Of a DNA stretch of 64,000 nucleotides, positions 5,503-64,000 are shown piece by piece. The position numbers and the translations under genes were made by a program. Source of the DNA: Endomicrobiales bacterium (lineage in GTDB: Bacteria; Elusimicrobiota; Endomicrobiia; Endomicrobiales; JALOBY01). The stretch spans positions 256,001 to 320,000 of the forward strand of contig CAWCNJ010000008.1 in the NCBI GenBank assembly GCA_963796955.1, read 5' to 3'. The notes below the pieces were generated by a model. It had not been told where the DNA came from and ran no database searches. It was given only the letters and a program-made list of their open reading frames with translations. Numbering within the stretch: position 1 is the stretch's first letter; the number at the start of each line of letters is the position of its first letter.

Positions 5503-5504
5503 TT

Positions 5505-6277: not shown

Positions 6278-6297
6278 TCTGACTGATCCGCCCGATC
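6258..6297. repeat. 9-bp-period tandem array of five GATC
   Basis: GATC at 6258, 6267, 6276, 6285 and 6294 (GATCTGACC GATCCGTCT GATCTGACT GATCCGCCC GATC). Confidence 0.85.
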
Positions 6298-6309
6298 AAA
6301 GGGGTAACA

Positions 6310-6645
6310 ATGGAAAACAACAACGACACACATTTCTTAACATTAACCATGATGCTGGCCCAGGCAGCCTGGCAGCAGTTGGGGAAAGTTGCCAATCCCA
6401 TGACCGGTAAGATAGAAAAGGATCTAACGCACGCGCAGATGTCCATTGATATGCTGAGAATGCTCAAAGACAAGACCAAAGGCAACCTGCAGCCGGAAGA
6501 GGAAAAGATATTGTCGAACGCTGTCTGCGACCTGGAATTAAATTACGCCGATGAGGTAGACAAGACCTCTAAAGAACCAAAGAAAACGGAAACCACTCCT
6601 GCTAACGACCAACTGAAAGCTGATGAAAACAAATCCCAAGGTTAA
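6310..6645 (+). CDS. DUF1844-like conserved protein
   Basis: AWQQLGKVANPMTGK...DL..AQMSIDML.MLKDKTKGNL..EE pattern recalled for DUF1844. Confidence 0.8.
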   Translation: MENNNDTHFLTLTMMLAQAAWQQLGKVANPMTGKIEKDLTHAQMSIDMLRMLKDKTKGNLQPEEEKILSNAVCDLELNYADEVDKTSKEPKKTETTPANDQLKADENKSQG

Positions 6646-43826: not shown

Positions 43827-43897
43827 GCGGGCGTAGTCTAGTGGCAAAACCCTTGCTTCCCAAGCAAGAGATGTGGGTTCGATTCCCATCGCCCGCT
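43827..43897 (+). tRNA. tRNA-Gly(CCC)
   Basis: GCGGGCG/CGCCCGC acceptor stem, anticodon arm CTTGC-TT-CCC-AA-GCAAG, GGTTCGATTCC T arm. Confidence 0.95.
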
Positions 43898-43906
43898 CCC
43901 ATGTTT

Positions 43907-44177: not shown

Positions 44178-45296
44178 ATGCGTCTATCAGACATCCTTAA
44201 AAACACCGGTGGCAATCAAAAACCGGCCGTCCCACAGGCGGCGCCCGCGCCCGTCTCACCCTCAGCACAACAACCCGATTTCAGACCAACCCTGTCGCAA
44301 ATGCCCAAAGCAGAAGCCCCCAGTGTTACCTCCCAGGATAACATCCTTGCCGCCTCAAATGTGTATACTAAAGCCATCAGCGAAGCAAAAACCCTTATCA
44401 ACTCAATAAGTAACGACAGCACCACCACCGACCCGATCACCTGCACTGAGCAGATCGTAAAACTTCTTGAAAACTCGAATGATGACCTGGTGATCCTTGC
44501 CGACCGCGCAACGCCCGATGTTTATCTCTACGGCCATAGCGTGAATGTGTGCATCTATTCCACCATGATGGGCAAAGGCATGGGGATGGACCATGACAAA
44601 TTAGTGCGTCTGGCGAATGCCGCCTTTTTCCATGATGTATGCCTTTCAAAACATTTGATGCTTATAATGAAGAACGGAAAGCTTGCCCAGGAAGAGGTAA
44701 ACTCTGTCCATGCCATATCGCCGCAGTGCTCTAAACTTATAGAGACGGCTATTTCAACGTTCACGCCGCTGGTGAAAACAGCGATCCTTCAAGTAATGTA
44801 CTCAATGAACGAGCGCAAATACGGCAGCCGGGAGATACCCGCCGAGCTCAACGAGGAAAACACCGAGTTCGTAAAGCTCATAACCATTACCGATATTTAT
44901 GAAGCGCTGACGCATCCGAGGCCGTACCGCGACCGCTTTCTGCCGCACGACGCGATAAAAACGATGATCAGCACGGCAGAGAACAACTTTGATCCGGTGC
45001 TGTTGAAATCCTTTATCGAAATTATTTCCTTATATCCGCTGGGCAGCTACGTCCGCCTTAACACCGACGAGATAGCCCGCGTGACCGGCGTGAACCGGGG
45101 ACTGCCCACGCGCCCGAAGATCCTTATTATCACCGACCCGTCCGGTGCGCGCCAGCCGCAAGCCAAGTTCGCGGACCTTGCCGCCTCACCAATGCTGTTC
45201 GTCAAAGAGGCCCTCGACGAAACAAAGCTTAAGCTTGCCGATAAAAAACTCATGCTGGAGCTGAAAGCCATCCGCTGGTGGGTAAAATCACTCTAA
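44178..45296 (+). CDS. degenerate HD-GYP domain protein
   Basis: HSVNV, FFHDV, D.YEALT..RPYR and YPLGS.V.LNT tail; lacks HHE and GYP; Pro/Ala/Gln-rich N-terminus. Confidence 0.8.
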   Translation: MRLSDILKNTGGNQKPAVPQAAPAPVSPSAQQPDFRPTLSQMPKAEAPSVTSQDNILAASNVYTKAISEAKTLINSISNDSTTTDPITCTEQIVKLLENSNDDLVILADRATPDVYLYGHSVNVCIYSTMMGKGMGMDHDKLVRLANAAFFHDVCLSKHLMLIMKNGKLAQEEVNSVHAISPQCSKLIETAISTFTPLVKTAILQVMYSMNERKYGSREIPAELNEENTEFVKLITITDIYEALTHPRPYRDRFLPHDAIKTMISTAENNFDPVLLKSFIEIISLYPLGSYVRLNTDEIARVTGVNRGLPTRPKILIITDPSGARQPQAKFADLAASPMLFVKEALDETKLKLADKKLMLELKAIRWWVKSL

Positions 45297-46105
45297 TGCC
45301 GCGCATTGTCCTGAAGATCGGACCGATAGCAGTATCCATCCACACGAACGAACCCGCCTGGCACCCGCTGCTTAAAGAACGTTACAAAAGTTTTTTAATT
45401 AAAAAACCATTAAAGGCCATTGCCAGCATAGAGCTGAAGACAGCTGAAGAGCGTACCGGCAAACGACAGCTCACGGTAAAGAGTACCCTCGACGGTCACG
45501 AAATATCCCGAAACGATTTCCACTCAACCTCTGATATGTACTTCAAAAGAACAAGCCTTTCATGCCTTCCAAATGTTTACTCCTTTGATTCGTGGCTGAG
45601 GGTATTCATAACTGCCGCGTATAGCACCAGGGGTATGGTATTGGTGCACGGGGCCTCTACCGGTTTTCGCCGTAAGGCCTATCTGTTCGCGGGCGTATCG
45701 GGGCGGGGCAAATCGACCATCACACGGAAGCTCGGCATTGATGCCGCTTTGAGCGATGAACTGACCCTTTTGTCGACAAAGGGGAAGAAAGTTTTCGCCC
45801 ACAGCACACCCTTCTGGGGTGAATTAGCCCGGCCGGAAACTGCAGGGCCTGTCTCATTGCCGCTGGGCCGCATATACTATTTAAAACACGGTCCCAAACT
45901 CAGCGACCGGAGTTTAACGCCGGCAGGATCATTTGCATATTTTATGACGACCATACTATTTTTTTCGACCGATGCGGGATCCGTTAACGGCATGCTGGAT
46001 ACGGCAGTCAATATAATAAAACATACCGGGGCCGCCACCCTTGCTTTTTCACTCAAGACCGGGCGCGAACAGATATGCAGATTATTGGAGGAACGTCTCT
46101 CATGA
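45296..46105 (+). CDS. HprK-related P-loop kinase-like protein (RiPP-cluster type)
   Basis: LVHGA, LFAGVSGRGKST (Walker A), SDE, STPFWGE; TAATG coupling to the upstream gene. Confidence 0.75.
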   Translation: MPRIVLKIGPIAVSIHTNEPAWHPLLKERYKSFLIKKPLKAIASIELKTAEERTGKRQLTVKSTLDGHEISRNDFHSTSDMYFKRTSLSCLPNVYSFDSWLRVFITAAYSTRGMVLVHGASTGFRRKAYLFAGVSGRGKSTITRKLGIDAALSDELTLLSTKGKKVFAHSTPFWGELARPETAGPVSLPLGRIYYLKHGPKLSDRSLTPAGSFAYFMTTILFFSTDAGSVNGMLDTAVNIIKHTGAATLAFSLKTGREQICRLLEERLS

Positions 46106-46368
46106 CGAAAGAACACATGTACCGGATAAAACCGGGCCTTGCCTGGCGCGTGATAGGGGAAACGGCCTTCGTCTTCGACCCGGCGAGATCGGAACTCCAT
46201 GAATTAAGCGAGTCAGCCACCGTGATCTGGCAGAGCCTTGATAAAAACGGTTCCGCCAACACAGCCGCGAAACGAATTTCCGACGAGTTCGACGTAACTG
46301 TCGAACGGGCGCTCCGCGATACGGGAACGCTGTTGACGGATCTTCAGGCACTGGGATTGATAGAATAA
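46102..46368 (+). CDS. PqqD-family RiPP recognition element (RRE)
   Basis: 88 aa; WRVIGE..V.D......HEL.ESA..IWQ.LD, ...I.DEFDV..E.A.RD...LL..L...GLIE. Confidence 0.9.
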   Translation: MTKEHMYRIKPGLAWRVIGETAFVFDPARSELHELSESATVIWQSLDKNGSANTAAKRISDEFDVTVERALRDTGTLLTDLQALGLIE

Positions 46369-46369
46369 T

Positions 46370-47404
46370 ATGCCAAATGTCATGGACAAGCTGTTTGCGT
46401 ATACGCAGAGACAACGCATCCCGCTGATGTGCACCTTTGAACTGACCAAAAACTGTAACCTGCATTGCCGCCACTGCTATATCCCGCACAGAGAACGCAC
46501 GCAAAAAACGCTTTCCACCGCTCAGATCATGACTGCGCTCGACCAGCTGGCACGCATGGGAACGCTGTACCTGGTTTTCACCGGGGGCGAGATCTTTCTC
46601 AGGAAAGATCTGCCGGCTCTGTGCAGACATGCCCGGAAGCTGCATTTTGATATCCGCCTTTTTACGAACGGGACCCTGTTGACGCCTGCCATGGCGAAAC
46701 AACTTGCCCGGGTCGGCGTAAGCGCGGTAGAAATTAGCATATACGGAAAACCGGACACACACGATGCTATTACCGGTCACACAGGCTCTTGGAAAAGATC
46801 GATGGATTCGATCAAAACTCTGCAAAAGCACGGCCTTAAAGCGGTCATTAAAATGCCGCTGATGACTGAAAATTATGAAGATAAAAAATACATTGAAGCG
46901 CTTTCAAAAAAACTTAATGTTAAACTTCAACTAGACGCTGTTATAACAACAATGTCGGATGGAAACAAAACACCATTATCAATGCGGCTGTCTGGAAAAA
47001 CCCTTCAAAAAATATTTAGATCCCACGACAACGGAACAGCCCCGGATGCCGGCGAAACAGACCTGATATGTTCAGCAGGAAGGAATATGCTGGCAATAGC
47101 GGCGAATGGTGATCTGTTGCCATGTATTCAACTGCCGTTTAAGCTAGGAAATATAACAAAAAGAACGATCCCTGGTTTATGGAATAATAATAAGCTCCTC
47201 GTTAAAAAATTGTTATCTATCAAGGCCTCCGATATTGCCGAGTGCAAGGAATGCGCGATGGTCTCACAGTGCCAACGGTGTCCGGGAATGGCACTGGTTG
47301 AAGACGGCTCTCTGTCCGGGCCATCGACCGCGGCCTGTTTATTGACCAGGGCAAGATATGGCAGCAAAACACCAACTAATCTAAATATTAGATCACATTC
47401 ATGA
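46370..47404 (+). CDS. radical SAM/SPASM peptide maturase
   Basis: CNLHCRHC, FTGGE, TNGTL, SIYG....HD.ITG..GS; SPASM CSAG...I.ANGDLLPC and CKEC.....CQRCPG...C. Confidence 0.92.
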   Translation: MPNVMDKLFAYTQRQRIPLMCTFELTKNCNLHCRHCYIPHRERTQKTLSTAQIMTALDQLARMGTLYLVFTGGEIFLRKDLPALCRHARKLHFDIRLFTNGTLLTPAMAKQLARVGVSAVEISIYGKPDTHDAITGHTGSWKRSMDSIKTLQKHGLKAVIKMPLMTENYEDKKYIEALSKKLNVKLQLDAVITTMSDGNKTPLSMRLSGKTLQKIFRSHDNGTAPDAGETDLICSAGRNMLAIAANGDLLPCIQLPFKLGNITKRTIPGLWNNNKLLVKKLLSIKASDIAECKECAMVSQCQRCPGMALVEDGSLSGPSTAACLLTRARYGSKTPTNLNIRSHS

Positions 47405-47491
47405 TCCACCGACGATAACGGCGCCGCGACGAGAAGTGTAATCATTACACTTATGTACACACACCACAAGACCTATTCAACAACAAATTCA

Positions 47492-47520
47492 TTGATTATT
47501 CTTGAATATTTGACTATACT
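47492..47520 (+). promoter_or_regulatory. putative sigma70 promoter for the precursor peptide and giant protein
   Basis: TTGATT (47492-47497), 17 nt, TATACT (47515-47520) in an AT-rich spacer. Confidence 0.5.
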
Positions 47521-47570
47521 TATAGCGGAACAAGGCGAAACGTAGCTTTTGTATTTTTGAGGAGTTGTTC

Positions 47571-47720
47571 ATGACACTTAGAAAGAAGCGAAAACCTTAC
47601 CTCCCACCCAAAATTTCATCACAAAAAGTAATTGAGACCGCGGCTCTTGCCTGCGGTAAATGTATAGGCGGAAATCCAATATATCAGGCGGCTTGTAGAA
47701 GTTTTTCTAAGATGTCCTAA
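47571..47720 (+). CDS. putative RiPP precursor peptide, 49 aa (absent from the ORF track)
   Basis: GAGGAG RBS at 47559-47564; MTLRKKRKPYLPPKISSQKVIETAALACGKCIGGNPIYQAACRSFSKMS*; YxxP leader motif, three Cys. Confidence 0.85.
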   Translation: MTLRKKRKPYLPPKISSQKVIETAALACGKCIGGNPIYQAACRSFSKMS

Positions 47721-47743: not shown

Positions 47744-50700
47744 ATGAGCGACACGAAAGTATTCTTAGCGACCGGCGGATCCATGCGGCCCCTGTTTTCT
47801 TCGGGTGAGCCGGTCTGGGCTGTTCCTATATCGAATAGTGAGGCGCTGCGTCCAGGTGATATTGTTATATATACGCGCGCGCGCGCAAAGTTTATGCACC
47901 GCGTTCTGTCCGTATCCGGTGACACATGCACAGTATTCAGCGACTCAGCCGTCTGCCAGCCACACACCATATCGGTCAATTCTATAATCGCAAAACCAAT
48001 TAGCCGCATGCAGGGAACACACGGCCTCCTCTGGGGCCTGGCCTGTAACGCGTTCTATCAGGTCTCCCGTTTTCTTAAACACCGCGCCTCCAGAATTTTA
48101 TCGGTTGCCGCCGTCTTAACTATTGCCTACTGCCTATTGCCTCTTACTTCACAAGCATATACCCGCGTTAAAACCGTTGAATTCAATTTCGGCGGCTATT
48201 ACTCGGCCACAAACGTTGCCAGCTGGACGCCGCCCTACGTTACCATAAACCTGCCGGATGCTATCGCTTCATCTCCCATCAAGGACGCGGTGCTTGATAT
48301 TCAATACCAATCGATCCCTGCCGTCACAAACAAGGACAGTCCAACTACTGCTATCGACGTACTATTCTCAACAGGCAATGCCGCCGGTGGAGCAGCTATA
48401 GACGGCATTGGTACGGGCGTTACTATGCCCACAAGTTCCAGAAAGAACGACATTATGTGCCTGCGTTTTGATGCAACATCAAAAATGACGGCCTGGAGCA
48501 ATACGCCGTATAGCATGAAAATAACCCTTACGGGCAGTAACGGTATTTTGTACAACTTGTATTCAGCCAAGCTGTTCATCACTTACTACTATGATGATAC
48601 GGCAACAACACAGGTAAAAACCGTACACTTTCCGCTTTTTTCGACGTCCGCAGACGGCAAGTCCGGCGTGGCATCCTACCTTGCCCAAAGAGGCAACACA
48701 ACAAGCGCGCTTTATTACGATGCTGAAATACCGGAAATATCCTTCACGCGCAAGCAGGCATGGTTCGAGGTGCGCGGATATCGCCAATCCGGCGGTTCCG
48801 CGACTGACGGCACGATATACGCCAAGATCGGCGCAAATGCCAAACAGGGAACAACGACGCTTGACGGTTCTATGACTGGCTCCTACTGGATCAGGTACCT
48901 CACATCTACCGGAACACCTGCGGGTTTCGCTGAAAACACATACCAGACGCTTAACGTGGTAACCGCTACCAATGCCACCATGAATGTTCTTGGCGGTGAA
49001 CTGGTGGAGACCTACGAGTATAACGCCACAACATTCCCGCAGGAAAAAACTCTTAACTACTTCTTGTGCCAGTCTACCGGCGGCGCCAGCGACCCGGCGA
49101 ACTTCACGGTACCGCTGTATATTAACGAATCCACCGTCACAATAAAACGCATTTACGCCCTGATGTATGGTTCTTATAACAACACCGGCGCTGCCCTGAA
49201 CCTTACCGTGAACTCTAAGATCAAGGGCCAGGCCCTTACAGCGCGGACCTATTCGCTGGCAACAACGGTAACACAGGCGTCAGGCTTTGTGCTTTATCAC
49301 GACCTTACGCAGGGGGCAACCTGGTGGGTGAACGGCTCCTCAGTAACGTTGTCATGGAACGCTAACGCCAACCTTGGCGGTATCGGCGCTGAACTGATAG
49401 TAACTTACACCTACAACAACGACGACTCCTTTACAGACTCTTACAGGATCTGGGGCGGGGAAACCACTAACCAGGTCACGAACGGCACTTATTACAACTC
49501 GAATTTAAACCTGTACTTCCCTGATCCTGAAGTGCCAACCGGCAAGAAAACACTCAGGTCGGCATTTTTCAGATATAATTTTATTCAGGGCGATTCCGCG
49601 GTCACAGCCAACCCGCAAACGACGATCGGCGTCAACGGCTCTGTTCCCGACAGGCAGGTGGTTCAGCACTACGGCACCACAGAAAACTTCCACGCTGTCG
49701 CATTATATGATTTTACCAAAAACATAACACCTGCCAGCACAACTGTTGCCGGAAATTTTACTTTGTCGAACGATCCATTCAATACAGCGGGCATAGCGTC
49801 AGTCATTTACGAGTACAAGCCGGTGCCGGTCGCGCCTTCGGCTTTGACCCAATACCAAAATGATGACGTTACGATAATGCCCCTGGGCGATTGGGAAAAC
49901 CTGCAGGGAAAACATTTAAGATTTACATTTTCAAGTAAAATAACGGGCGATTCCTTATACCCTGTTGTAGAAGTTAAGCCGGCTGCCGGTTCCTTCGACG
50001 GCATTACGAACCTTTCGACCGGAACGGTTCAAACCTATAACGGCTCTTCTCTATCGGCTGATATTTTCATAAGCACGGGCCAGGGTGCGTATCAATGGCG
50101 CGCATCGGTTGTTGGGAGCGCCGGCCGCTCGGCATGGACAAATTTCGGAGCGCCCGGCACTACACACTTCGGCATAGACCTTTCTACACCGGCCATTCCA
50201 GTCCTCGCGACGCCATCAAGCGGAACCGCGACATCAGATCAAACACCAACGCTTACATGGAACGCCTTGACAGATACCGGCGGGTCAGGACTAAGCGGTT
50301 ACCTGCTTCAAATAGCTACTTCGACAAATTTTAACCCGGTGTTTTATAGCTCTATTACTGCAAACACCTCATTCACCTCTACCTTTACCTGGACGCAAGC
50401 ACCCTATTATTGGAGAACACGGTCCCAGGACGCGGCAGGCAACTTCAGCGCGTATTCAGACACTTGGACGATAATTATCGACTCGACGCCGCCGCTGCAG
50501 GTTACAACCTACTTGGCGCCAGCTAATCAGGCATTCAGCTCATCAACGATCCAGACATTCAGCTGGGCTTCCTCCACCGACACGCCGGCTGGGGTCCAAA
50601 ACTACATACTGCAACTTTCTACGGCCGCTGATTTTTCCGCTATTGCTTACTCGTCGGTAACAGTCTCGACCGGCGCAGTAATGAACATTACGCAATCATC

Positions 50701-53700
50701 ATATACGTGGCGCGTTAACGTGCAGGATTGGGCGAACAACTACACAACATCAACACTGAAATACAGCGTGGTGATAGATTCCTCGCCACCGCCTCCGGTA
50801 ACAACGATATCAACTCCGTCTGACGACTCTGCCTCCAATGTGCAGCTCCAAACTTTCAACTGGACAGGTGTTGTCTCATTACCCGCCCCAACCAAGGCGT
50901 ATTTTCTGCAGGTTTCAACGGCGCCGGATTTCTCGGTCATCAACTATTCATCAGCTACTGCAACAAATAGCGCGCAGTTGACACTTAATCAGTCATCCTA
51001 TACCTGGCGCGTGAATGTGCAGGATTACGCGTTGAATTACACGACGAGCCCGGCAGTCTTTCATGTGATCGTCGATACTACGCAACCGGCACAGGTGACA
51101 AATTATATTGCTCCGGGCAACCAGGTGTTCAGTTCAACTACATCCACTACGTTTTCCTGGTCGGCCTCCACCGACACGCCTGCCGGCATTAAAAATTACA
51201 TCCTTCAGCTGTCGACGGCACCGGATTTCAGCGGCACGATCATATCTTCAACGACGCCGGCCTTAAGCGCCCAGATGTCTCTGAGCCAGTCGTCTTATAC
51301 CTGGCGCGTAAACGCCCAGGACTGGGCTAACAACTACACAACCTCGACCTTAAAATACAGCGTCGTTATCGACTCATCACCTCCGCCGCAGATAACTACG
51401 TTATCTACGCCGTCGAACGGCCTGGCGACAAACACCCAGACACAGACCTTCAGCTGGGTGGGTGTGGCATCTTTCCCTGCGCCGATACAAAACTATATAC
51501 TGCAGCTGTCAACTGCGGCTAATTTTACGGGTACGATAATCTCATCTGTTACCGCTGCGACAAGCGCCGTGCTCACGCTTAACCAGTCGTCTTACACCTG
51601 GCGAGTTAACGTGCAGGACTACGCCCTGAATTACACTACCAGCGCAGCGACCTTCAACCTTGTTATCGACACAACACCGCCGCCGGCGGTTTCTACATTA
51701 CTGGGTCCTTCGCCGGACGGCCTTGCCTCAGCCACTACTACGCAGGTGTTCTCCTGGACGGGAGTGACGGATACGCCTGCGCTGGTTAAAAACTATATCG
51801 TTCAAGTTTCGACCGCGGGGGATTTCTCTAAGATCGCATATTCCTCAGTAACCGCGAACACCAGTGCCACGATCGCGCTTATCCAGTCTTCGTACACCTG
51901 GCGTGTGAATGTTCAGGATTATGCCTTGAATTACACAACCTCACCCTCCGTTTATCATATCGTTATAGATACGACGCCGCCACCGGCCGTATCCACGCTC
52001 AATGGCCCTGCTAACAATGTTCCAGTTAACAACCTTAACCAAACATTCTCCTGGACCGGCGTAACAGATCTTCCGTCGATGTTGAAGAATTACATAGTGC
52101 AGCTTTCGACTGCGTCTGATTTCTCCAAGATAGCCTACTCATCCGTAACCGCGCTCAACAACGCGACTATCAGCCTGAACCAATCCTCCTACACCTGGCG
52201 CGTAAATGTGCAGGACTATGCCCTGAACTACACCACTTCATCCGCCGTATTCTTTGTGCTGGTTGATACCACCCTGCCCGTTATTACGAATTTGCAGGCA
52301 GGGGACGCAACGTGGCGAAGCGCTCCTGGCAACACCTACAACGTCCAATTTGGCGACCAGGGCTTCGCTCAGTCAAAGCTTAATTCCATCCAGTACGAAG
52401 TTATCACCGCTACCGGCTTTACGGCTATCCCCTGGACTGACATAGCCGCGCCGCCCATCAACCAGCCGACATATGTAACGCCGTGGCAAGTGAACTTTAA
52501 CGCCCTGGTAGAGGCGGTTACTAATTTCGTCTCCATTCGCGCGACGGATTTGGCGGGCAATACGTCAACGTATACCAACGCCTTCTACGTGCTGAAAGAT
52601 GTGTCCGTGCCGAGTATCGTGGACAATCAATTCGGTGATACCATCTGGCGCAACGCCGCGGGCGCCACATATGACCTGGATTTCTTTGATAACGGCGGAT
52701 CGGGCATCGACCATGTAAATTACAGCGACACATACTATGTGAACAATACTCCCGGCGCCTCAGTCTTTACGAATCGCACACTCATATCGCAGGCAACCCT
52801 GAACGCGACCACTTCGTACATCACCACATGGCAGATACCCGATTTCAATCTGCTGTTGGAAGGGAAAAACTTTATCGGCGTTACCGTCTATGACCGTGCG
52901 GGCTTAAGCCAGACGCTGTCAAGCTATCCGGAACCTTTCTACATTTTAAAAGATACAACGGCGCCGACGATAATAAACGGGCAGGCCGGCGACAACACAT
53001 GGCGGCCAGCCAACACAGGTCAGTACAATGTTGACTTTCAGGATGCCTCAAGCGGTTCGGGCGTTGCGGGCTTTGATATGCTGGCTTCCACCGTCGCGGG
53101 AGGCACGCAATCCCTGTTAATACCCTGGACGCAGGTGCTCTCAACCAACACCTACCTCTATACACAGTCGTGGCCCATTCCAGACGCGGTATTTACCGCG
53201 CTTCGCTCAGGCCACGAGCCGAACCGCATATCGCTGCGCACCTACGATTTTGCAGCTAACACCTCTGCGGTAACAACAGATGCCTTTTATATCCTGAAAG
53301 ACACGATCCCACCGACCATGTCTAACAACCAGGCAGGAGATAACACCTGGCGGACACTGGGCGGCACAACGTACAACGTCGGCTTTGCCGATGCTGAATC
53401 GTGGGCTGCTGGAGCGCGCTACACCGTGCGCAACGGGCCGACGACCGGAGACACGGAATGGGCGCCCAGCTGGCAGCCGATCTTCTCTTCGACCGGAACA
53501 CCGTCCTATAACACGAACTGGCAGCTAGACTTTAATAGCTTATGGGGAGCCACTAACTATGTATTCGTTCAATACTGGGATGTGGCCGGAACAACAATAA
53601 CACCGACAACGCCTGTCTTCTATATTAAAAAAGACAATGTCGCTCCGACGGTACAGAACAATCAATCCGGAGATAACACGTGGCGCAATGCGCCGGGAAC

Positions 53701-56700
53701 CGCCTACGACGTAGACTTCCAGGACTCCATATCAGGCGTTTCTCAGGCAGACTATATGGTGAAAGACGCTGTCGGCAACACCGTGATCCCCTGGACAAAT
53801 ATATTTACAAACCCGGCAGGGCAAGCGTCATACACCACCAACTGGGCCTTATCCGTCGCCACCTTTACCGCGCTGCTTGATGGCGCATCGAACTTTGTGT
53901 ATGTGCGGGACTACGACGTCGCCGGAAACCTTACGGCGCCCGTCAATCCGCAATTTTATATCCTTAAAGATACAGACCTGCCGACGGTGCAACTTGGCGC
54001 CCAACGATACTTCATGTCCTCACACGATCTTGGCCTGCAAAACTATCCTGATTTCTTCGATCCAAAAAACAGCCGAACACCGGGGGCGTCCGGCCTTGCC
54101 TCTATACAGTATTACATATCTACCGGTACCGCGATGACCGGCACTGCGGTTGAGAACTGGACATCTATAGCGGGACTTACCCCCGGGACCACCTGGTTTA
54201 CCAACCAGTGGTCGGTCAACTTCGCCCCTCTGCCCGGAGCGACGACATGCTACGTTTCTGTTCAGGCTACCGATCTTGCCGGGAACACAACGATCTTTAT
54301 GGATGCCTTCAGGGTTTTCAAATCAACGATCCCGGCCCCTGTGATCACCGACAACCAGACCGGGGATTATACCTGGTATACCTCTTCAAATTCATTCACT
54401 ACCAAGCAATATGATGTCGATTTTCGATCCTTCGATAACGATAACATTTCATCTGTCACCGTTCAGTCTTGGAGCGGACTGGCACAGACTGGCTCTAAGT
54501 ACGTTGACTGGACCGCCGTTGTTTCCACCGGTACGGTATTGTCCTACACCCAGAACTGGACATTGACACCCGCACCCTTCACCGGCTTTGCACCGGAATA
54601 TATCTGGAACCTGCTGCATGAAGGCACCAACTACATCACTGTCCAAGCATACGATATGGCCTTGGACTCCAGCACTAAGCAAGATGCCTTCTTTGTCCTG
54701 AAAGACACCAACGGCCCAACGATCACCAACAACCAGTCAGGCGATCTTACTTGGCGCAACGCGGTCGGTACTACCTATAACGTCGATTTCCAGGATTTGA
54801 TATCGGGCACGACCGAGGCGGATTATCTTATTAAAGATGGTTCAGGCAACCAGCTCCTCGGCTGGACCCCGGTATTCACTAATTCGGGCGGTGTGGGAAG
54901 CTACACCACGGACTGGCCGATATCGGCCGGGGCCTTCACTGCACTGCCCGACGGTTCCACCGGGTACGTTTACCTGCGCTCGTTCGATAAGGCCGGCAAT
55001 GCAACCACGAATCTCACACCGTCCTTCTACATCCTGAAAGACACAGACACACCGTTCATCAACGTAGCCGCCCAGAAGTACTACATGTCTTCGCACGACT
55101 TCAGCCTCAAGAACTATGCCGGCTTCTTTGACCCTAAGAACAGCTATACGCCCGGCGCTTCAGGATTGAACACGATCCAGTATTTTATTTCTACCGGCAC
55201 AGCCATGACCGGAACACCGGTTAAGAACTGGACGACTATCCCCGGCTTAACGGTGGGGACAACGTGGTTCACTAATAACTGGCAGATCGATTTCGCCTCC
55301 CTGCCAGGCGCGGTGACCTGCTACGTTTCGCTTTCCGCCGCTGACCTTGCAGGCAACACCTCAACTTTTGTTGACGCCTTCAGGGTCTTTAAGTCCACTA
55401 TAGCCGCACCGGTGATTACCGATAACCAGACCGGCGATTACACCTGGTATACCTCTTCAAATTCATTTACCGCCAAGCAATATGACGTCGATTTCCAATC
55501 CTTCGATAACGACTACATTTCATCCGTTACCGTTCAAGCTTGGAGCGGCCTTGCACAAAGCGGCTCTAAATATGTTGACTGGACCGCCGTTGTTTCTACC
55601 GGCACCGTATTGTCTTATACCCAGAACTGGGCGTTGTCGCCCGCACCCTTCACCGGCCTTGCGCCTGAATACCTCTGGAACCTGCTGCATGAAGGCACCA
55701 ATTACATCACCGTCCAGGCATACGATATGGCCTTGGATTCCACCACGAAACAAGATGCCTTCTTCGTCTTGAAAGACACCAACGGCCCAACGATCACCAA
55801 CAACCAGTCAGGCGACAACACCTGGCGCAATACGGTCGGCACTACCTATAACGTTGATTTCCAGGACTTGATATCAGGTACCACTGAAGCTGATTACATG
55901 ATCAAAGACGGCTCCAATAATCAACTCCTCGGCTGGACCCCGGTATTCACTAATGCCGGCGGTGTGGGAAGCTACACCACGGACTGGCCGATATCGGCCG
56001 GCGCCTTCACCGCACTACCGGACGGTTCGACCGGCTACGTTTACCTGCGCTCGTTCGATAAGGCCGGCAATGCAACCACGAATCTCACACCGTCCTTCTA
56101 CATCCTGAAAGACACAGACACACCGTTCATCAACGTAGCCGCCCAGAAGTACTACATGTCCTCGCACGACTTCAGCCTTAAGAACTATGCTACCTTCTTT
56201 GACCCTAAGAATAGCTTTACACCCGGCGCTTCCGGTTTGAACGCTATCCAATACTTTATCTCCACCGGCACCGCCATGACAGGCACACCGGTGAAGAACT
56301 GGACAACCATACCAGGCCTAACGGTGGGAACAACATGGTTTACAAATAACTGGCAAATAGACTTCGCTGCCCTGCCGGGCGCTGTTACCTGCTACGTATC
56401 TGTCTCAGCCGCCGATCTTGCCGGCAACACCTCAACCTTCGTTGATGCCTTCAGGGTCTTTAAGTCCACTATAGCCGCACCGGTGATCACCGACAACCAA
56501 TCTGGCGATTACACATGGTACACCTCTTCAAATTCATTCACCGCCAAGCAATACGATGTCGATTTCCAATCCTTCGACAACGACTACATTTCATCCGTTA
56601 CCGTCCAAGCCTGGAGCGGCCTTGCACAAAGCGGCTCTAAATATGTTGACTGGACCGCCGTTGTTTCTACCGGCACCGTATTGTCTTATACCCAGAACTG

Positions 56701-59700
56701 GGCGTTGTCGCCCGCACCCTTCACCGGCCTTGCGCCTGAATACCTCTGGAACCTGCTGCATGAAGGCACCAACTACATCACTGTCCAAGCATACGATATG
56801 GCCTTGGATTCCAGCACTAAGCAGGATGCCTTCTTCGTCCTGAAGGACACCAACGGCCCAACGATCACCAACAACCAGTCAGGCGACAACACCTGGCGCA
56901 ATACGGTCGGTACTACCTATAACGTTGATTTCCAGGACTTGATATCAGGTACCACTGAAGCTGATTACATGATCAAAGACGGCTCCAATAATCAACTCCT
57001 CGGCTGGACCCCGGTTTTCACTAATTCGGGCGGGGTGGGAAGCTACACCACGGACTGGCCGATATCGGCCGGGGCCTTCACTGCACTGCCCGACGGTTCC
57101 ACCGGGTACGTTTACCTGCGCTCGTTCGATAAGGCCGGCAATGCAACCACGAATCTCACACCGTCCTTCTACATCCTGAAAGACACAGACACGCCGTTCA
57201 TCAACGTAGCCGCCCAGAAGTACTACATGTCCTCGCACGACTTCAGCCTTAAGAACTATGCTACCTTCTTTGACCCTAAGAATAGCTTTACACCCGGCGC
57301 TTCCGGTTTGAACGCTATCCAATACTTTATCTCCACCGGCACCGCCATGACAGGCACACCGGTGAAGAACTGGACAACCATACCAGGCCTAACGGTGGGA
57401 ACAACATGGTTTACAAATAACTGGCAAATAGACTTCGCTGCCCTGCCGGGCGCTGTTACCTGCTACGTATCTGTCTCAGCCGCCGATCTTGCCGGCAACA
57501 CCTCAACCTTCGTTGATGCCTTCAGGGTCTTTAAGTCCACTATAGCCGCACCGGTGATTACCGATAACCAGACCGGCGATTACACCTGGTATACCTCTTC
57601 AAATTCATTTACCGCCAAGCAATATGACGTCGATTTCCAATCCTTCGATAACGACTACATTTCATCCGTTACCGTTCAAGCTTGGAGCGGCCTTGCACAA
57701 AGCGGCTCTAAATATGTTGACTGGACCGCCGTTGTTTCTACCGGCACCGTATTGTCTTATACCCAGAACTGGGCGTTGTCGCCCGCACCCTTCACCGGCC
57801 TTGCGCCTGAATACCTCTGGAACCTGCTGCATGAAGGCACCAATTACATCACCGTCCAGGCATACGATATGGCCTTGGATTCCACCACGAAACAAGATGC
57901 CTTCTTCGTCTTGAAAGATACCAACGGCCCAACGATCACCAACAACCAGTCAGGCGACAACACCTGGCGCAACGCGGTCGGCACTGTTTACAACGTCGAT
58001 TTCCAAGACCTGATATCGGGCACGACCGAGGCTGATTATCTTATTAAAGACGGTTCAGGCAACCAGCTCTTCGGCTGGACACCGGTATTCACTAATGCCG
58101 GCGGTGTGGGAAGCTACACCACGGACTGGCCGATATCGGCCGGCGCCTTCGCCGCCCTGCCTGACGGCTCGACAGGATATGTGTACCTGCGCTCGTTCGA
58201 TAAGGCCGGCAATGTTACCACCAACGCCTTGCCTTCCTTCTACATACTTAAGGACACTGATGTACCGACCGTTCAAGTAAATGGTCAAACATTTTTCCAG
58301 GGCGCCTACCAATTCGGCGCAATACACGACGTGGATTTCTTTGACCCGAAAAACAGCAACACACCGGGGGCATCTGGCCTTAGTTCTATCCAATACTTCA
58401 TTTCCACCGGGCCTGCCATGACAGGAACGGTCATGAAGAATTGGACGTCTATCCCTGGCTTAGTAACAGGCAGCACGTTTTACACAACAAACTGGGCAAT
58501 AGATTACACCGCTCTAACGCAGCTGGTCACCGGATACGTATCGGTACAAGCGGTCGACCAGGCAGGCAATACTACAACGTACCTGGACGCCTTCCGGGTA
58601 TTAAAAACCACCGCGACCGCACCCTTGATATCCAATAACCAGACAGGGGATTTCAAATGGTATGGCTCATCAACAGCCATGCTTTCATCAACCTACAATA
58701 TGAGCTTCCAGTCGATAGCGGGCCCCGCTGTATATATCTCGTCGGTTTCTGTTCAGATATACAGCAAACCCGGAAGTTCAGGCACAAAACTGGTGGATTG
58801 GACAACCGTTGTTTCCACAGGCAATGTATTAACATATTCTGTCCCGTGGCAGTTGAAACCGTCAACATGGACAACCCAGCCCGATTATTTCTGGAATTTG
58901 ATGCAAGAAGGTACAAACTATATTTCTGTACAGGTGCTGGACATCAATGCGGATTCTGCAACGGCAACAGATGCATTTTTTATTCGAAAAGACACAACAA
59001 CTCCCGGCATTATAAACAATCAAACAGGCGACAACGTCTGGCGCAACACAGCTGCGGCGGTATACGACGTCGATATAAATGACCTTACGTCAGGAACCAC
59101 TGAGGCTGATTACAAAATAATGGACGCTTCCAAAGTCACTACATTGGTTGACTGGACCCCGTTCTTAACCAACCCCACAGGCGTTAAATCGCAAACCGCG
59201 AATTGGGGAATAAACCCTGCTGATTTTGCCCAGCTACCAAGCGGCGCCACAAGCTATGTTTATGTTCGGGCCTTCGACCTGGCAGGCAATACCACGCAGC
59301 CTATCAACGCACAGTTTTATATTCTGAAGGACACAAATGTACCGACAGTGTCGGTAAACGCTTCAAACTACTACCTCTCGTCGCGTGACTTTGGAACTCA
59401 GAACTATGCCGGTTTCTATGACCCGCTGGTACAGGGCAGAACACCTGGCGCGTCAGGGTTGAACGCTATCCAATACTTTATCTCTACCGGCACCGCGATG
59501 ACCGGCACGCCGGTTAAGAACTGGACGGCAATACCCGGCTTAACGGTGGGGACAACGTGGTTCACTAATAACTGGCAGATCGATTTCGCCTCCCTGCCAG
59601 GCGCGGTGACCTGCTACGTTTCGCTTTCCGCCGCTGACCTTGCAGGCAACACCTCAACTTTTGTTGACGCCTTCAGGGTCTTTAAGTCCACTATAGCCGC

Positions 59701-61606: not shown

Positions 61607-63290
61607 ACTCTATCCAGTACTACATTTCCACCGCGACCGCGATGTCCGGTTCTATCCCTGTCAAAAATTGGACAGCTATCCCCGGCTTAACGCTGGGAAC
61701 AACGTGGTACACCTCCAACTGGCAAATTGATTTCGCTTCACTGCCCGGTGCGGTAACGTGTTATGTTTCAGTTCAGGCTGCCGACCTTGCCGGAAACACT
61801 TCAACCTACGTTGACGCCTTCAGGGTTTTCAAATCCACAATTGCCGCACCAGCAATAACCAACAACCAGACCGGCGATTATACGTGGTATATTTCTTCGA
61901 ACGTATTCACAACCAAACAATATGATGTTGATTTCCAATCCCTTGATAATGACTATATCTCCTCTGTAACCGTTCAAGCCTGGAGCGGTCTCGCGCAGTC
62001 TGGTTCTAAATATGTGACTGGACCGCTGTTGTTTCTACCGGCACAGTATTGTCTTATACCCAGAACTGGGCGTTGACGCCCGCACCCTTCACCGGCCTTG
62101 CGCCGGAATATATCTGGAACCTGCTGCATGAAGGCACCAACTACATCACCGTTCAGTCCTTTGATATGGCCCTGGATTCCAGCACTAAACAGGATGCCTT
62201 CTTTGTCCTGAAAGACACCAACGGCCCAACGATCACCAGCAACCAGTCAGGCGACAACACCTGGCGCAACGCGGTCGGCACTGTTTACAACGTCGATTTT
62301 CAGGACTTGATATCGGGCACGACCGAGGCGGATTATCTTATTAAAGACGGTTCAGGCAACCAGCTCTTCGGCTGGACCCCGGTATTCACTAATGCCGGCG
62401 GTGTGGGAAGCTACACCACGGACTGGCCGATATCGGGCGGCGCCTTTAACGCACTGCCTGATGGTTCCACCGGGTACGTTTACCTGCGCTCGTTCGATAA
62501 AGCCGGCAATGTTACCATGAACCTCACACCATCCTTCTTTATCTTAAAAGATACTGACACCCCTACGGTAACGGTCGCGGCGCAGAAATACTACATGTCA
62601 TCGCGCGACTTTGGCGCACGGAACTATACGAATTTCTATGACCCGCTGGTACCGGGACAATCACCCGGCGCTTCCGGCTTGAACGCTATCCAGTACTACA
62701 TTTCCACCGCGACCGCGATGTCCGGTTCTATTCCTGTCAAAAACTGGACGGCTATCCCCGGTTTGGCGGTTGGAACAACGTGGTTTACTTCCAACTGGCA
62801 AATTGATTTCGCTTCACTACCGGGAGCAGTTACCTGCTACGTCTCTGTCTCTGCTGCCGACCTTGCAGGTAACACTTCTACGTATGTTGATGCTTTCAGG
62901 ATCTTTAGATCGACCGTTCTTGCGCCGGCCATTGTGATCAATGAAGCAGCAGATTACAACTGGTACGGGGCCTCTACACCATTTGTTTCAAGGCTCCACG
63001 ACATCGATTTTGATTCCTTTGATAACGATTTTATTTCAACGGTTACCGCGAGCGCCTACAGTCTGCCGTCGCTTGGCGGCACGCAGCGCTTTGCCGACAC
63101 CATCATAATCGCCACCGGCACCGTCTATGCCTATACGGCGAACTGGCCGCTGACGCCGGTGGTAAGCGCGGCACCGGAATATCTGTGGAACCTGCTGGCC
63201 GAAGGGACTAATTACATTTCTCTGCAGGCGTATGATATCATGAATGATTCAACACCTGCTGTCGACGCCTTCAGGGTGTTTAAAGACACG
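53640..63290 (+). repeat. about nine tandem ~1071-bp (357-aa, three-domain) units
   Basis: Equivalent positions at 54411, 55482, 56553, 57624, (one diverged unit), 59775, 60846, 61922 and 62998. Confidence 0.92.
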
Positions 63291-64000
63291 ACACCGCCGG
63301 TGATCTCAAACCTGATGGCCGGCGGCGACAACACCTGGCGCAACAGCAACAGCGCGACCTACAACGTCGGTTTAAGGGACATCCTCTCAGGCCTTGGCAG
63401 TGCGGACTATATCATACATGCCAATTCCTACACAGGAACGCTGCTACAGGATTGGAGTTCGATAAACACCATAACCATCGGATCAACATTATACAATGGC
63501 GCGCCATGGAGCATTTCAGCGGCCGCATGGAACGCGATACCTGAAGGAACGACGGCGTACGTATCAGTAAGGGTTTTTGACCGCGCGAGTGTCGGCGCAA
63601 GCCAGGATTGTTTCTATATTTTGAAAGATACCACCCCGCCGACCGTGCCGGTGACGACGGCGCCAGCAACAAATGCGATCCTTGCCTCCGCCAATGTGAA
63701 CTTCTCATGGAACGGATCGACCGACACCGTAAGCCATGTTGATCATTACGATATCGTTGCCGCTACATCCAGCGACTTTGGAAATATCCGCTACAGCGCC
63801 ACCGTACCTGCTAACGCAGCATCGGCTCTCTTAAGCGAAAGTACCTGGTATTGGAAGGTGCGCTCAGCGGACACCGCCGGCAATGCTTCCGCTTACTCAA
63901 CCGCGGTTTCGTTCACCGTCAGCACCAGCGCGCCTTCAGGGCCACTGCTCAGCGCGCCGCTCAACGGCGCAACGACCAACGTCATGCTGATCAATTACCG
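61510..64000 (+). CDS. continuation of the giant protein after two -1 frameshifts; open to the window end
   Basis: Repeat sequence continues in a new frame at 61510-62015, then from 62016 with no stop to 64000 (read codon by codon); returns to Fn3-like units near 63630. Confidence 0.85.

Follow-up and report, generated by a model that had tools for sequence, protein, structure and literature searches.

A 49-codon gene in an Endomicrobiales genome most likely encodes the precursor of an LPP-type peptide pathway with an added radical SAM enzyme

What does a peptide of 49 residues do between a radical SAM enzyme and a giant surface protein? The window analysed here is a stretch of 64,000 nucleotides from an Endomicrobiales bacterium, in which such a gene occurs; database records of its orthologues read 'hypothetical protein'. 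An initial annotation, made from the letters alone, had read the gene as a precursor peptide. This part of the reading stood, while an HprK-like kinase, a signal-peptidase-like protease and an invariant C-terminal serine had been overlooked. We conclude that the gene most likely encodes the precursor of a RiPP pathway with an added radical SAM enzyme. Compared with the linear polyphosphorylated peptides (LPPs) of Bacillota, made by LppA/K/B/S/D/N (Popov et al., Nat Commun 2026, PMC13381572), what is new is most likely a peptide-modification pathway in which a radical SAM enzyme has been added to an LPP-type set. The genes and signals concerned are as follows.

44178-45296, + strand: HD/HD_5-domain protein, 372 aa (Pfam HD_5, 7.7e-10)
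45278-46105, + strand: HprK/PEPCK-fold P-loop kinase-like protein, 275 aa (Foldseek, invariant residues)
46075-46368, + strand: discrete PqqD-family RiPP recognition element, 97 aa (Pfam PqqD, 4.8e-12)
46370-47404, + strand: radical SAM/SPASM maturase, 344 aa (Pfam Radical_SAM, 1.6e-28; SPASM, 3.4e-9)
47492-47520, + strand: promoter-like hexamer pair TTGATT-17-TATACT, within the 166-nt gap 5' of the peptide gene
47559-47564, + strand: GAGGAG ribosome-binding site, 6 nt from the ATG
47571-47720, + strand: ORF of the predicted precursor peptide, 49 codons (49 residues, then stop)
47744-48100, + strand: Sec11/SipW-type (S26B-like) signal-peptidase-like domain, about 117 aa (profile against PDB, invariant residues)
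47744-61606, + strand: giant ORF, 4620 aa, with the peptidase-like domain in frame at its N-terminus

A real gene in a conserved module

The ORF translates as the initial annotation had quoted it, and the ribosome-binding site named there is in place; by eye, a purine-rich, Shine-Dalgarno-like run precedes the chosen start in 8 of 9 orthologues (25 nt upstream). The proposed sigma70-like promoter of its own fared less well. A scan of the gap before the peptide gene returned the hexamer pair as a single site with 9/12 matches, against a mean of 0.9 sites by chance in shuffles, which is weak evidence and leaves a function for the pair unsupported. Across 10 aligned orthologues, forward frame 1 is the only frame free of stops. 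Pairwise differences at codon positions 1, 2 and 3 number 516, 496 and 1096, and the change is synonymous in 607 of 1278 differing codon pairs. The ORF is a real gene under coding constraint.

Homologues with 49-67% identity occur at 23 other Elusimicrobiota-type loci. Of 40 further genomes from this order, 9 contain the peptide (E 1e-11 to 1e-19), and it was also found at 21 loci of species-representative MAGs. Its profile matches 341 protein clusters (E<=1e-3) and a motif scan returned at least 590 metagenome loci, so that the window locus is one member of a much larger relative of LPP. The carriers are Elusimicrobiota, Armatimonadota and soil metagenomes.

Four genes accompany the peptide. 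Two encode a recognition protein of the PqqD family and a radical SAM/SPASM enzyme, and the others a kinase of HprK/PEPCK fold and a signal-peptidase-like protease of Sec11/SipW type. The first two had already been placed near the peptide in the initial annotation, which had also suggested looking for homologues beside related radical SAM genes. These exist: the radical SAM gene is present in 20 of the 21 species-representative loci and the peptidase domain in 18, and of the three loci with no peptidase match two break off about 100 nt beyond the peptide. The order HD, kinase, PqqD, radical SAM, peptide, peptidase/giant is kept in 9/9 related genome loci as far as the contigs reach (that of locus L017 stops 101 nt past the peptide). 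The kinase-like profile matches 10 of 41 genomes, exactly the peptide-bearing set (peptide E<=1e-11), and the peptidase profile matches 9 of these 10 (E<=1e-36), the tenth being the one whose contig ends 101 nt past the peptide. Among the 32 metagenome loci with at least 3 kb downstream of the peptide, 26 hold all four partners, in the order peptide-peptidase-kinase-PqqD-radical SAM, and Pfam confirmed the partner genes in 3/3 four-partner loci scanned. Thus, a five-gene module is conserved across phyla. Two kinds of exception were seen: locus L035 holds peptide, peptidase and giant gene with no radical SAM, PqqD or kinase gene within 7 kb, and 4 of the 32 metagenome loci hold the peptide and a secreted protein only.

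The enzymes and their surface-protein neighbours

The enzyme families of the module and their catalytic residues are identified. The kinase-like protein has R108, H124, G144, K145 and D160 invariant in its alignment, the family pattern being H124, K145, D160 and E/D161. Its AF2 model (pLDDT 93) matches PEPCK (Foldseek E 2.8e-8) and the HprK/P structures 1kkl and 1knx (E 1.5e-4). A fold search was needed for this kinship, because the profile search against PDB sequences gave P-loop matches only and no HprK. Among 21 kinase members scanned with NCBIfam, HprK_rel_A came up in 13, ScmC in 8 and HprK_rel_B in 5, all far below cut-off. We propose that this protein is the predicted peptide kinase. 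The PqqD protein scores 46.5 bits against a Pfam cut-off of 23.4 and is the sole PqqD match genome-wide; its true start may be an internal Met.

The radical SAM enzyme carries CNLHCRHC (CX3CX2C) and a SPASM region with seven cysteines, and has no N-terminal recognition element of its own. Among solved structures it is closest to SkfB (6efn, E 1.1e-21; next 3e-7). The top NCBIfam match, TIGR04053, reaches 121.5 bits against a cut-off of 395, and the enzyme falls below every curated NCBIfam cut-off, sactisynthase and ranthisynthase families included; its chemistry can therefore not be read from family membership. The HD gene is the first gene after tRNA-Gly and shares its last 19 nt with the start of the kinase-like gene. 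A homologue lies upstream of the cassette in 17 of the 21 species-representative loci (E<=1e-26), while a search with the window protein as query found none in the 29 metagenome loci of at least 7 kb; the HD gene accompanies the cassette in Elusimicrobiota-type loci only.

The peptidase domain contains G11-G12-S13-M-R-P, H52-R53 and D67, followed by an amphipathic or hydrophobic helix. Its profile finds SEC11A (7p2p, E 3.7e-6) and SEC11C (5.3e-5), and more weakly bacterial SPase I. H52, R53 and D67 are invariant, and S/C13, H52 and D67 are conserved in 20/20 sequences, with Ser at position 13 in 11 of them and Cys in 9, a swap that fits the catalytic nucleophile as expected. Pfam Peptidase_S24 is above cut-off in the 6 stand-alone orthologues scanned and below it for the window domain (15.8 vs 23.3 bits). 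We propose that the domain is the predicted leader peptidase, and that it belongs to the peptide pathway since loci with no giant protein still have it beside the maturases.

The giant ORF begins with the peptidase-like domain, followed by a segment resembling a signal peptide (...ILSVAAVLTIAYCLLPLTSQA|YT), a conserved region of about 770 aa that matches no known family, and Ig-like repeats. Met89 is the sole in-frame ATG/GTG/TTG codon between codon 1 and the membrane segment. The in-frame fusion occurs in the window and at 5 other loci (L016, L018, L019, L022 and L024). The N-terminal region is kept in 17/21 species-representative loci at 33-51% identity, and the giant gene is tied to the cassette in Elusimicrobiota-type loci only. 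In soil metagenomes, 11 of the 17 loci with enough flank hold an unrelated secreted protein of about 620 aa. It is probably a beta-propeller, a weak hint from a low-confidence model (pLDDT 52.9) whose Foldseek matches are generic beta-propellers only, such as BamB and designed propellers. Homology of this protein to the N-terminal region of the giant protein was rejected, with an hhalign probability of 0.1 and no significant BLASTP match. The run of same-strand genes closes with a T9SS-tailed beta-propeller, a barrel of the outer membrane, NTP_transf_5, an ABC-2 transporter and Wza/Wzc-type export genes. The NTP_transf_5 gene (80.5 bits) and the ABC-2 transporter lie about 41 kb downstream of the peptide, past the giant genes, and no exporter adjoins the peptide gene.

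Leader, core and the comparison with LPP

The peptide was divided into a predicted leader and core by homology to the LPP leader.

47571-47639, + strand: predicted leader, residues 1-23 (MTLRKKRKPYLPPKISSQKVIET)
47640-47720, + strand: predicted core, residues 24-49 (AALACGKCIGGNPIYQAACRSFSKMS), and stop codon
47652-47654, + strand: Cys28 codon
47661-47663, + strand: Cys31 codon
47694-47696, + strand: Cys42 codon
47715-47717, + strand: Ser49 codon

The predicted leader has a basic N-terminus, Y10xxP13xI15 and I21-E22-T23. The YxxP motif that the initial annotation had singled out is shared by 148 of the 150 best family representatives, and the family leader reads YxxPx[IVF]x5[IV][IF]ET, with FET in most of the wider family and IET in the window peptide. 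In the orthologue alignment, K8, Y10, P13, S17, K19 and E22 are invariant in the leader, and A24, A25, L26, C28, G29, K30, C31, P36, C42 and S49 in the core. L26, C28, K30, C42 and S49 stay invariant in a wider alignment of 51 sequences and Cys31 nearly so, which bears out the three cysteines noted earlier. From the ACGK cysteine onward, 89 of 144 of the best family representatives have just two Cys. Conservation of possible acceptor residues is limited to the cysteines, Gly29, Lys30 and Pro36. The final residue is Ser in 24/24 Elusimicrobiota-type peptides, in 144 of the best 150 family representatives and in 80/80 metagenome loci; it is the sole Ser conserved family-wide. Residues 24-49 of the window peptide include no acidic residue.

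In the LPP pathway, as the article describes it, the SpI-like LppS, the RRE LppB and the HprK-like LppK act on a precursor whose leader consensus is YxxPxVLxHQxIxFET, and LppS cuts after the Thr (T-1) of FET. Cleavage requires the RRE, F-3/E-2/T-1 are important and core residues 1-5 are dispensable; LppS docks on LppB via an N-terminal helix, the phosphosite is a conserved Ser at core position 3, and LPP clusters are also found in capsule loci (PMC13381572). Because the matching LPP leader is cut after this Thr, the window leader probably ends at Thr23 (IET|AALAC), which by analogy moves the boundary to Thr23|Ala24 and away from Ala27, where the initial annotation had ended the leader to start the core at Cys28. 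The residues at the proposed site vary with the type of peptidase: Ser-type enzymes pair with IET (9), IES (1) and LET (1), Cys-type enzymes with FEQ (6), FET (2) and FEH (1), and the ALAC/ALSC stretch occurs with both. This P3/P1 pairing may support the ET site, but is suggestive only, since related genomes are not independent.

The same pathway with a cut at Ala25-Leu26-Ala27|Cys28, giving a 22-residue core with an N-terminal Cys, appears to us rather unlikely. Among 144 of the best family representatives, the residue at -3 from Cys28 is Ala in 132, and that at -1 is Ala, Ser, Thr, Val or Gly in 138. These residues fit the classical AxA rule of signal peptidases, so the site keeps some probability, and the nearest kin of the peptidase family are Sec11 and bacterial signal peptidases. 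Against it stand the characterised LPP cut after FET and the variation described above, which follows the ET site; moreover, Val, Lys, Arg, Asn, Gln or Trp occupies -1 in 14 of the 144. Two further readings of the ALAC stretch were rejected. A lipoprotein or Sec signal is disfavoured, as judged by eye, by K19 and E22 at the position of the hydrophobic core and the lack of a hydrophobic stretch. A UmuD/LexA-type cut at Cys28|Gly29, prompted by the Pfam name Peptidase_S24, conflicts with a profile that matches Sec11 and signal peptidases, not LexA, and with the His that replaces the Lys of the LexA-type dyad.

The window module and LPP share a discrete PqqD-type RRE, a kinase resembling HprK, an archaeal/ER-type SPase-I-like Ser-His-Asp leader peptidase, a leader that follows the LPP consensus in part, with YxxPx[VIL] and then [IF]ET directly before the core, and a location beside polysaccharide-export genes. 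The Ser-to-His spacing of 39 in the window peptidase is that of LppS (S29/H68). However, the radical SAM enzyme, the invariant Cys and the invariant C-terminal Ser are features without match in LPP. The LPP product is linear and made with no cross-linking enzyme; the window module includes a radical SAM/SPASM gene, which may or may not form cross-links. With the cut at the ET site, the window core would have just 26 residues, the cysteines among them. Core position 3 is the invariant Leu26 instead of the phosphosite, and the precedent for the kinase target therefore differs from that for the cleavage site. From Tyr to Thr the window leader counts 13 residues, compared with 15 in the LPP consensus, and the L, H and Q of that consensus are not conserved in the window family (a comparison by consensus, not by direct alignment with LppA). 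The peptidase has a Cys nucleophile in 9/20 orthologues and is fused to the giant surface protein in the window, where just 12 residues precede the catalytic Ser; it thus probably has no LppS-type N-terminal helix for docking on LppB. The LPP core cluster includes an NTP transferase as well as an exporter resembling MsbA, neither of which adjoins the window peptide, although NTP_transf_5 and an ABC transporter are present 41 kb away. Finally, the hosts are Elusimicrobiota and soil bacteria, as opposed to Bacillota.

The proposed pathway, its alternatives and other known systems

We consider it likely that the gene encodes a RiPP precursor of an LPP-type pathway that gained a radical SAM enzyme. 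The chemical steps, their order, the cleavage site and the biological role we infer as follows. The discrete PqqD protein would bind the leader via Y10xxP13xI15, and the radical SAM/SPASM enzyme would then modify the A-L-x-C-G-K...C core with the leader still attached, the most likely chemistry being cross-links from Cys sulfur to carbon (thioethers). The HprK-like kinase would phosphorylate Ser49, perhaps repeatedly, like the kinases of paeninodin-type lasso peptides. Lastly, the Ser-His-Asp peptidase, in the window genome the N-terminal and presumably cytoplasmic domain of the giant ORF, would cut after I21-E22-T23 with PqqD presenting the substrate. The product would be a 26-residue peptide beginning AALACGKC. 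Thioether formation is plausible because of the full CX3CX2C motif, the seven-Cys SPASM region and the kinship with the thioether-forming SkfB. Ser49 is proposed as the kinase target because it is the only family-wide Ser, because lasso kinases provide a precedent and because H124/K145/D160/E-D161 match their motif. Several points speak against this reading: the radical SAM enzyme misses every curated cut-off and few possible acceptors are conserved, Leu replaces the LPP phosphosite at core position 3, the leader is shorter than that of LPP between Tyr and Thr, the residues before Cys28 also fit the AxA rule, the window peptidase probably has no docking helix, and L035 and 4 of the 32 metagenome loci hold the peptide with no maturases nearby.

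Other chemistry by the same enzyme is quite possible, though not what we expect: epimerisation, a cross-link centred on Lys or the backbone, or MftC-like chemistry on the terminal Ser, with the cysteines serving as a disulfide or metal ligands. No curated cut-off is reached, and models of the heme pathway, mycofactocin, PqqE and WgkB score about as well as sactisynthase models. Gly29, Lys30 and Ser49 vary no more than the cysteines do, and most of the best representatives, as counted above, keep two cysteines only. Yet among solved structures SkfB is by far the closest relative (E 1e-21 vs 3e-7), and sactipeptides and ranthipeptides are usually recognised by invariant Cys in a short core encoded beside a radical SAM/SPASM enzyme. 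At the far end, it is hardly credible that the frame is open by chance, or that it encodes a small protein with no leader and no relation to its neighbours. The ORF is short and has no Pfam or NCBIfam match, and an NCBIfam scan of 15 family peptides found no family, but its conservation, fixed stop, third-position excess of changes, and synteny and co-occurrence with four enzyme genes across phyla argue for the gene.

A further, doubtful alternative concerns the fate of the modified peptide, which may not be a free product but a partner of large surface proteins or exopolysaccharide machinery (subunit, anchor or assembly factor). A parallel is QhpC, the small subunit of quinohemoprotein amine dehydrogenase, which is cross-linked by a radical SAM enzyme. 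The in-frame fusions, the giant gene 3' of the peptide in 17/21 loci and L035, which retains peptide, peptidase and giant gene, all point this way. So do the secreted soil protein, the sole partner in 4/32 loci, the lack of an adjoining exporter, the surface and export genes that end the run, and the capsule loci of LPP clusters (PMC13381572). On the other side, the two types of large neighbour are non-homologous, many loci have the five-gene module with neither of them, the propeller model is of low confidence, and adjacency alone is weak evidence. We would give only a small chance to the cassette making a cross-linked, C-terminally phosphorylated mini-peptide that is tied to the cell surface and not to antibiosis. 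This role is proposed because the leader peptidase is repeatedly fused to or beside giant secreted proteins in exopolysaccharide-export loci, and because the soil peptide pairs with an unrelated secreted, putative beta-propeller. The mature peptide could then serve surface proteins or capsule as a subunit, as an assembly signal, or as a primer or anchor to which a phospho-linked glycan is attached. A surface-tied role, if true, would add a new class of function to the RiPPs, and the repeated association with giant surface proteins and capsule loci offers a concrete handle on the purpose of such peptides.

For the likely LPP-type pathway itself, recruitment of a radical SAM/SPASM enzyme and a Cys-bearing core predicts a new scaffold, cross-linked and phosphorylated on its last serine, and the variant also predicts a leader protease with a Ser or Cys nucleophile. 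The pathway should be easy to reconstitute because the core is short and highly conserved and the enzyme set small.

Three other known systems share parts of the module. With phosphorylated lasso peptides (paeninodin PadeK, ThcoK, SyanK, pseudomycoidin PsmK/PsmN) it has in common the HprK-like kinase and the conserved C-terminal Ser; according to PMC9266682, such kinases carry a His-Lys-Asp-Asp motif and (poly)phosphorylate this Ser of the precursor before leader removal. Here, in contrast, a radical SAM enzyme and a SpI-like peptidase stand in for cyclase and B2 protease: a scan of 12 ORFs in 36258-64000 found neither of the latter, the 81%-complete genome yields 0 matches to Transglut_core3, and the window peptide has no Asp/Glu at core positions 7-9. 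Sactipeptide and ranthipeptide pathways (SkfB, AlbA, CteB, PapB) likewise have a radical SAM/SPASM maturase, a leader-bearing Cys peptide and RRE-dependent recognition. Unlike them, the window module has its RRE as a separate protein, not an N-terminal domain, and includes kinase and signal-peptidase-like genes; their maturase models score far below cut-off (SkfB 90.5 vs 300 bits, PapB 72.6 vs 340). SynChlorMet (Scm) cassettes combine the HprK-like ScmC with the radical SAM/SPASM enzymes ScmE and ScmF (NCBIfam/TIGRFAMs). The window module has one radical SAM enzyme, not two, and scores below cut-off for all three (ScmC 23.6 bits vs 125, ScmE 112.9 vs 400, ScmF 71 vs 400). A PqqD protein is part of the SynChlorMet cassette.

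In PMC/bioRxiv full text, the scope of our search (subscription journals lie outside it), we found no description of an LPP-like variant bearing a radical SAM enzyme, no occurrence of the string ALACGK and no paper on the SynChlorMet cassette. Papers there that combine Elusimicrobiota, RiPPs and radical SAM enzymes are, by their listing, general BGC surveys only, and the passages of PMC4289311 that mention HPr kinase do so in lasso clusters only. The LPP pathway of SpI-type peptidase, RRE and kinase was described just in 2026, as a speciality of Bacillota: the article calls LPPs restricted to that phylum, and its main text makes no mention of radical SAM or SPASM (PMC13381572). Its supplement includes SpI+RRE pairs from Acidobacteriota, which are not labelled LPP.

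The peptide gene and its neighbours

The proposed precursor ORF, at 47571-47720 (+), translates as claimed to MTLRKKRKPYLPPKISSQKVIETAALACGKCIGGNPIYQAACRSFSKMS, followed by a stop codon. It lies in a same-strand gene run that begins with a tRNA.

Features of the gene run around the peptide
43827-43899: tRNA-Gly(CCC), start of the run, directly upstream of the HD gene
44178-45296: HD_5-domain protein
45278-46105: P-loop (kinase-like) protein, 275 aa, weak ScmC/HprK-related matches
46075-46368: PqqD (4.8e-12)
46370-47404: radical SAM (rSAM)/SPASM protein, CX3CX2C and a seven-Cys SPASM region
47571-47720, +: peptide
47744-61606: giant ORF, 4620 aa
61519-62076 and 62049-63998 (open end): further ORFs of the giant run, which continues on the same contig to about 345000 (G000:C8; L119, L120)

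The GAGGAG ribosome-binding site of the initial annotation is present at 47559-47564, with the ATG 6 nt further on, and a Shine-Dalgarno-like run, judged by eye, precedes eight of nine orthologue starts. For its sigma70-like promoter, we found a single 9/12 hexamer pair (47492-47520), which carries no weight since shuffled sequence yields 0.9 such sites. The rSAM and peptide genes are separated by an AT-richer gap of 166 nt (47405-47570) that could contain a promoter or regulatory element; orthologous loci have a gap here too. Between 47300 and 47900 we saw no terminator-like site.

A six-frame search detected the peptide in 9 of 40 related genomes (E 1e-11 to 1e-19), spanning seven families of the same order. 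Scanning one genome per prokaryote species resulted in 21 peptide loci, 19 labelled Elusimicrobiota, Elusimicrobia or Endomicrobia(les), one 'Deltaproteobacteria' and one 'uncultured bacterium'. Once past the basic N-terminus, ten aligned orthologues are internally gap-free, with K8, Y10, P13, S17, K19, E22, A24, A25, L26, C28, G29, K30, C31, P36, C42 and S49 invariant. Forward frame 1 is the sole frame open in all ten, pairwise differences at codon positions 1, 2 and 3 number 516, 496 and 1096, and 607 of 1278 differing codon pairs are synonymous. By these sequence criteria, purifying selection acts on the ORF, which is a real gene. The annotation as an rSAM-associated precursor with a leader is borne out as to the kind of gene, which is genuine and conserved; of its four partner enzymes, PqqD/RRE and rSAM had been recognized, and the kinase and the peptidase were missed.

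Conservation of the cassette and the wider family

The order HD-kinase-PqqD-rSAM-peptide-peptidase/giant is kept in all nine related genome loci, as far as contigs extend. A search for homologues beside related rSAM genes had been proposed as a check, and an rSAM gene is present in 20 of the 21 species loci. Kinase and PqqD were found by tblastn in 16; in two others Pfam detected PqqD, each time beside an unassigned ORF alignable with the kinase family. The peptidase domain occurs in 18 (two of the three exceptions stop about 100 nt past the peptide), the giant N-terminal region in 17 and the HD protein, whose gene overlaps that of the kinase by 19 nt in the window, in 17. The kinase profile matched exactly the 10 of 41 genomes that carry the peptide, and the peptidase profile matched nine of these ten at E≤1e-36; the tenth genome's contig stops beside the peptide.

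Some homologous loci depart from this layout. L035 (MGVC01000008.1) keeps the peptide, peptidase and giant gene, with no maturase within 7 kb; at 3342-7560 a GAF-HD_5-PilZ protein and a T9SS-tailed M28 peptidase replace kinase, PqqD and rSAM before the peptide, and the maturases of this genome may be encoded at another site or be absent. In L027 (2973-4750) and L038 (1721-3509), which diverge most among the Elusimicrobiota-type loci, the place of the HD gene just before the cassette is taken by a PIG-L deacetylase and a WecA-like glycosyltransferase of family 4, a hint of a connection to sugars or lipid carriers.

A profile of the ten peptides, searched against 1.84 billion representatives, resulted in 341 clusters (defined at 50% identity) at E≤1e-3, with the pattern KKPYxKPx[FI]xxE+[IV]FETxALxCGK...C...S. 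Among the best 150 of the 341, YxxP is found in 148 and a C-terminal Ser in 144 (Thr in 3); from the ACGK Cys to the end there are two Cys in 89 and three in 53. Family members are recorded as 'hypothetical protein', one of them in Armatimonadota, and no NCBIfam model matched the window peptide or the scanned family peptides. The motif FETxAL[AST]CGK was confirmed at no fewer than 590 metagenome loci, of which 80 peptides were kept; all 80 end in Ser. Peptide, peptidase, kinase, PqqD and rSAM follow in that order in 26 of the 32 kept loci with at least 3 kb downstream, and a Pfam scan of three such loci confirmed Peptidase_S24, PqqD and Radical_SAM plus SPASM. Queries with window proteins turned up no giant protein in the metagenome loci and, in the 29 of at least 7 kb, no HD gene. 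The presence of the peptidase with the maturases there indicates a conserved module of five genes, i.e. peptide, peptidase, kinase, RRE and rSAM, and assigns the peptidase to the peptide pathway rather than to the giant protein. The HD protein lies outside the wider module and may serve regulation or phosphate trimming.

The enzymes and their published precedents

Conserved in 20 peptidase orthologues are G11, G12, M14, R15, P16, G38, D39, Y43, H52, R53, D67 and G94. At position 13, 11 sequences have Ser and 9 have Cys, and neither His nor Asp varies, a natural swap at the nucleophile of an S26B-like peptidase. The swap was noted by comparing the window (47744-48100, with Ser) with L021, L025, L028 and L031-L036, and accompanies an IET versus FEQ change before the predicted cut. 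Among solved structures, the profile matched human SEC11A best (E 3.7e-6), with SEC11C, before bacterial signal peptidases, which points to an ER/archaeal-type (SipW/Sec11-like) Ser-His-Asp enzyme. Most loci have a stand-alone peptidase gene of 110-140 aa; in-frame fusion to the giant protein occurs in the window, L016, L018, L019, L022 and L024. In the window the fusion looks real, since there is no ATG/GTG/TTG from Met89 to the membrane segment.

The kinase-like protein has R108, H124, G144, K145 and D160 invariant. Its AlphaFold model (pLDDT 93) resembles ATP-dependent PEPCK (Foldseek E 2.8e-8) and HprK/P (1kkl, 1knx; E 1.5e-4). For the rSAM protein, the best NCBIfam model, TIGR04053, scores 121.5 bits where 395 would be required, with about 25 more SPASM families close behind; the closest solved relative is the thioether-forming SkfB (E 1.1e-21), with the following matches at about 3e-7.

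Linear polyphosphorylated peptides (LPPs) were described in Bacillota by Popov et al. 2026 (PMC13381572). There, the LppA leader reads YxxPxVLxHQxIxFET, LppB is the RRE, and the archaeal-type signal-peptidase-like LppS (S29, H68, D93) cleaves after T-1 only when LppB presents the substrate, with F-3, E-2 and T-1 important. Core Ser3 is polyphosphorylated by the HprK-like LppK; the clusters, which also encode an exporter and an NTP transferase, lie in capsule loci, and the authors state that product and role are still unknown (PMC13381572). In lasso peptides, according to a review, the HprK-like kinases PadeK, ThcoK, SyanK and PsmK, with a His-Lys-Asp-Asp motif, (poly)phosphorylate a conserved C-terminal Ser of the precursor before leader removal (PMC9266682). 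By the paper's descriptions of the Lpp proteins, our system has three enzymes and probably its leader logic in common with LPPs; the logic of the C-terminal Ser is that of paeninodin-type lasso peptides. On top of these come an rSAM/SPASM enzyme and invariant cysteines. What emerges is an uncharacterised relative of the LPP pathway that carries an rSAM enzyme, and we found no description of this variant in PMC and bioRxiv full text. LPPs are restricted to Bacillota according to the authors, whose main text has zero mentions of radical SAM, SPASM, Acidobacteria or Elusimicrobia; in the supplement, SpI+RRE pairs from Acidobacteriota fall into a network cluster of their own, not named LPP, and the domain matrix includes a Radical_SAM column (PMC13381572).

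The leader probably ends at I21-E22-T23, leaving a 26-aa core (AALACGKC...KMS). The initial annotation had placed the cut at Ala27|Cys28, which we consider unlikely and probably four residues off, although an AxA-like pattern ahead of Cys28 speaks for it. Two lines of evidence argue for the cut after Thr23. The experimental LPP cut follows the T of FET (PMC13381572), and the proposed P3/P1 residues track the peptidase type: IET, IES or LET with Ser enzymes and FEQ, FET or FEH with Cys enzymes, whereas ALAC/ALSC occurs with both. As these lineages are not independent, the association is suggestive only. We predict phosphorylation at Ser49, since the last residue is the only family-wide conserved Ser and core position 3 is Leu. 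With SkfB as nearest relative and the Cys invariant, a thioether from Cys28, Cys31 or Cys42 is our best guess for the rSAM product.

Large secreted proteins beside the peptide

The 4620-aa ORF begins with about 117 S24/S26 peptidase-like residues (GGSMRP...HRV), followed by a signal-peptide-like segment, a region of about 770 aa of no known family and Ig-like repeats. After it come, on the same strand, giant Ig/fn3-repeat ORFs of 2472, 2757 and about 2360 aa, with a beta-propeller at the end of the last; then a PQQ_2 beta-propeller of 847 aa that carries a type IX secretion (T9SS) tail, an outer-membrane barrel and an NTP_transf_5 gene, 41 kb away from the peptide. Beyond these lie polysaccharide-export genes of the Wza/Wzc type and, on the opposite strand, an ABC-2 transporter.

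Another secreted protein, about 620 aa long, adjoins the cassette in 11 of 17 soil loci with enough flank, and it is the peptide's sole neighbour in 4 of 32 metagenome loci. This family has a DWSxxH motif, with D-W-x3-H invariant directly past the signal peptide, and no Pfam match; a low-confidence model (pLDDT 52.9) suggests a probable beta-propeller. It shows no homology to the giant protein. The recurrent link of peptide loci to large secreted proteins underlies the reading, in our view a doubtful one, of the modified peptide as a partner of large surface proteins or capsule.

Members of the 620-aa family adjoin the cassette or orphan peptide copies at L044, L051, L058, L060, L075, L081, L085, L086, L092, L093, L096, L104, L108, L114 and L115. 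The giant ORFs consist of near-identical repeats of 300-400 aa, and the short overlapping ORFs at their junctions may reflect frameshifts or assembly errors in these repeats.
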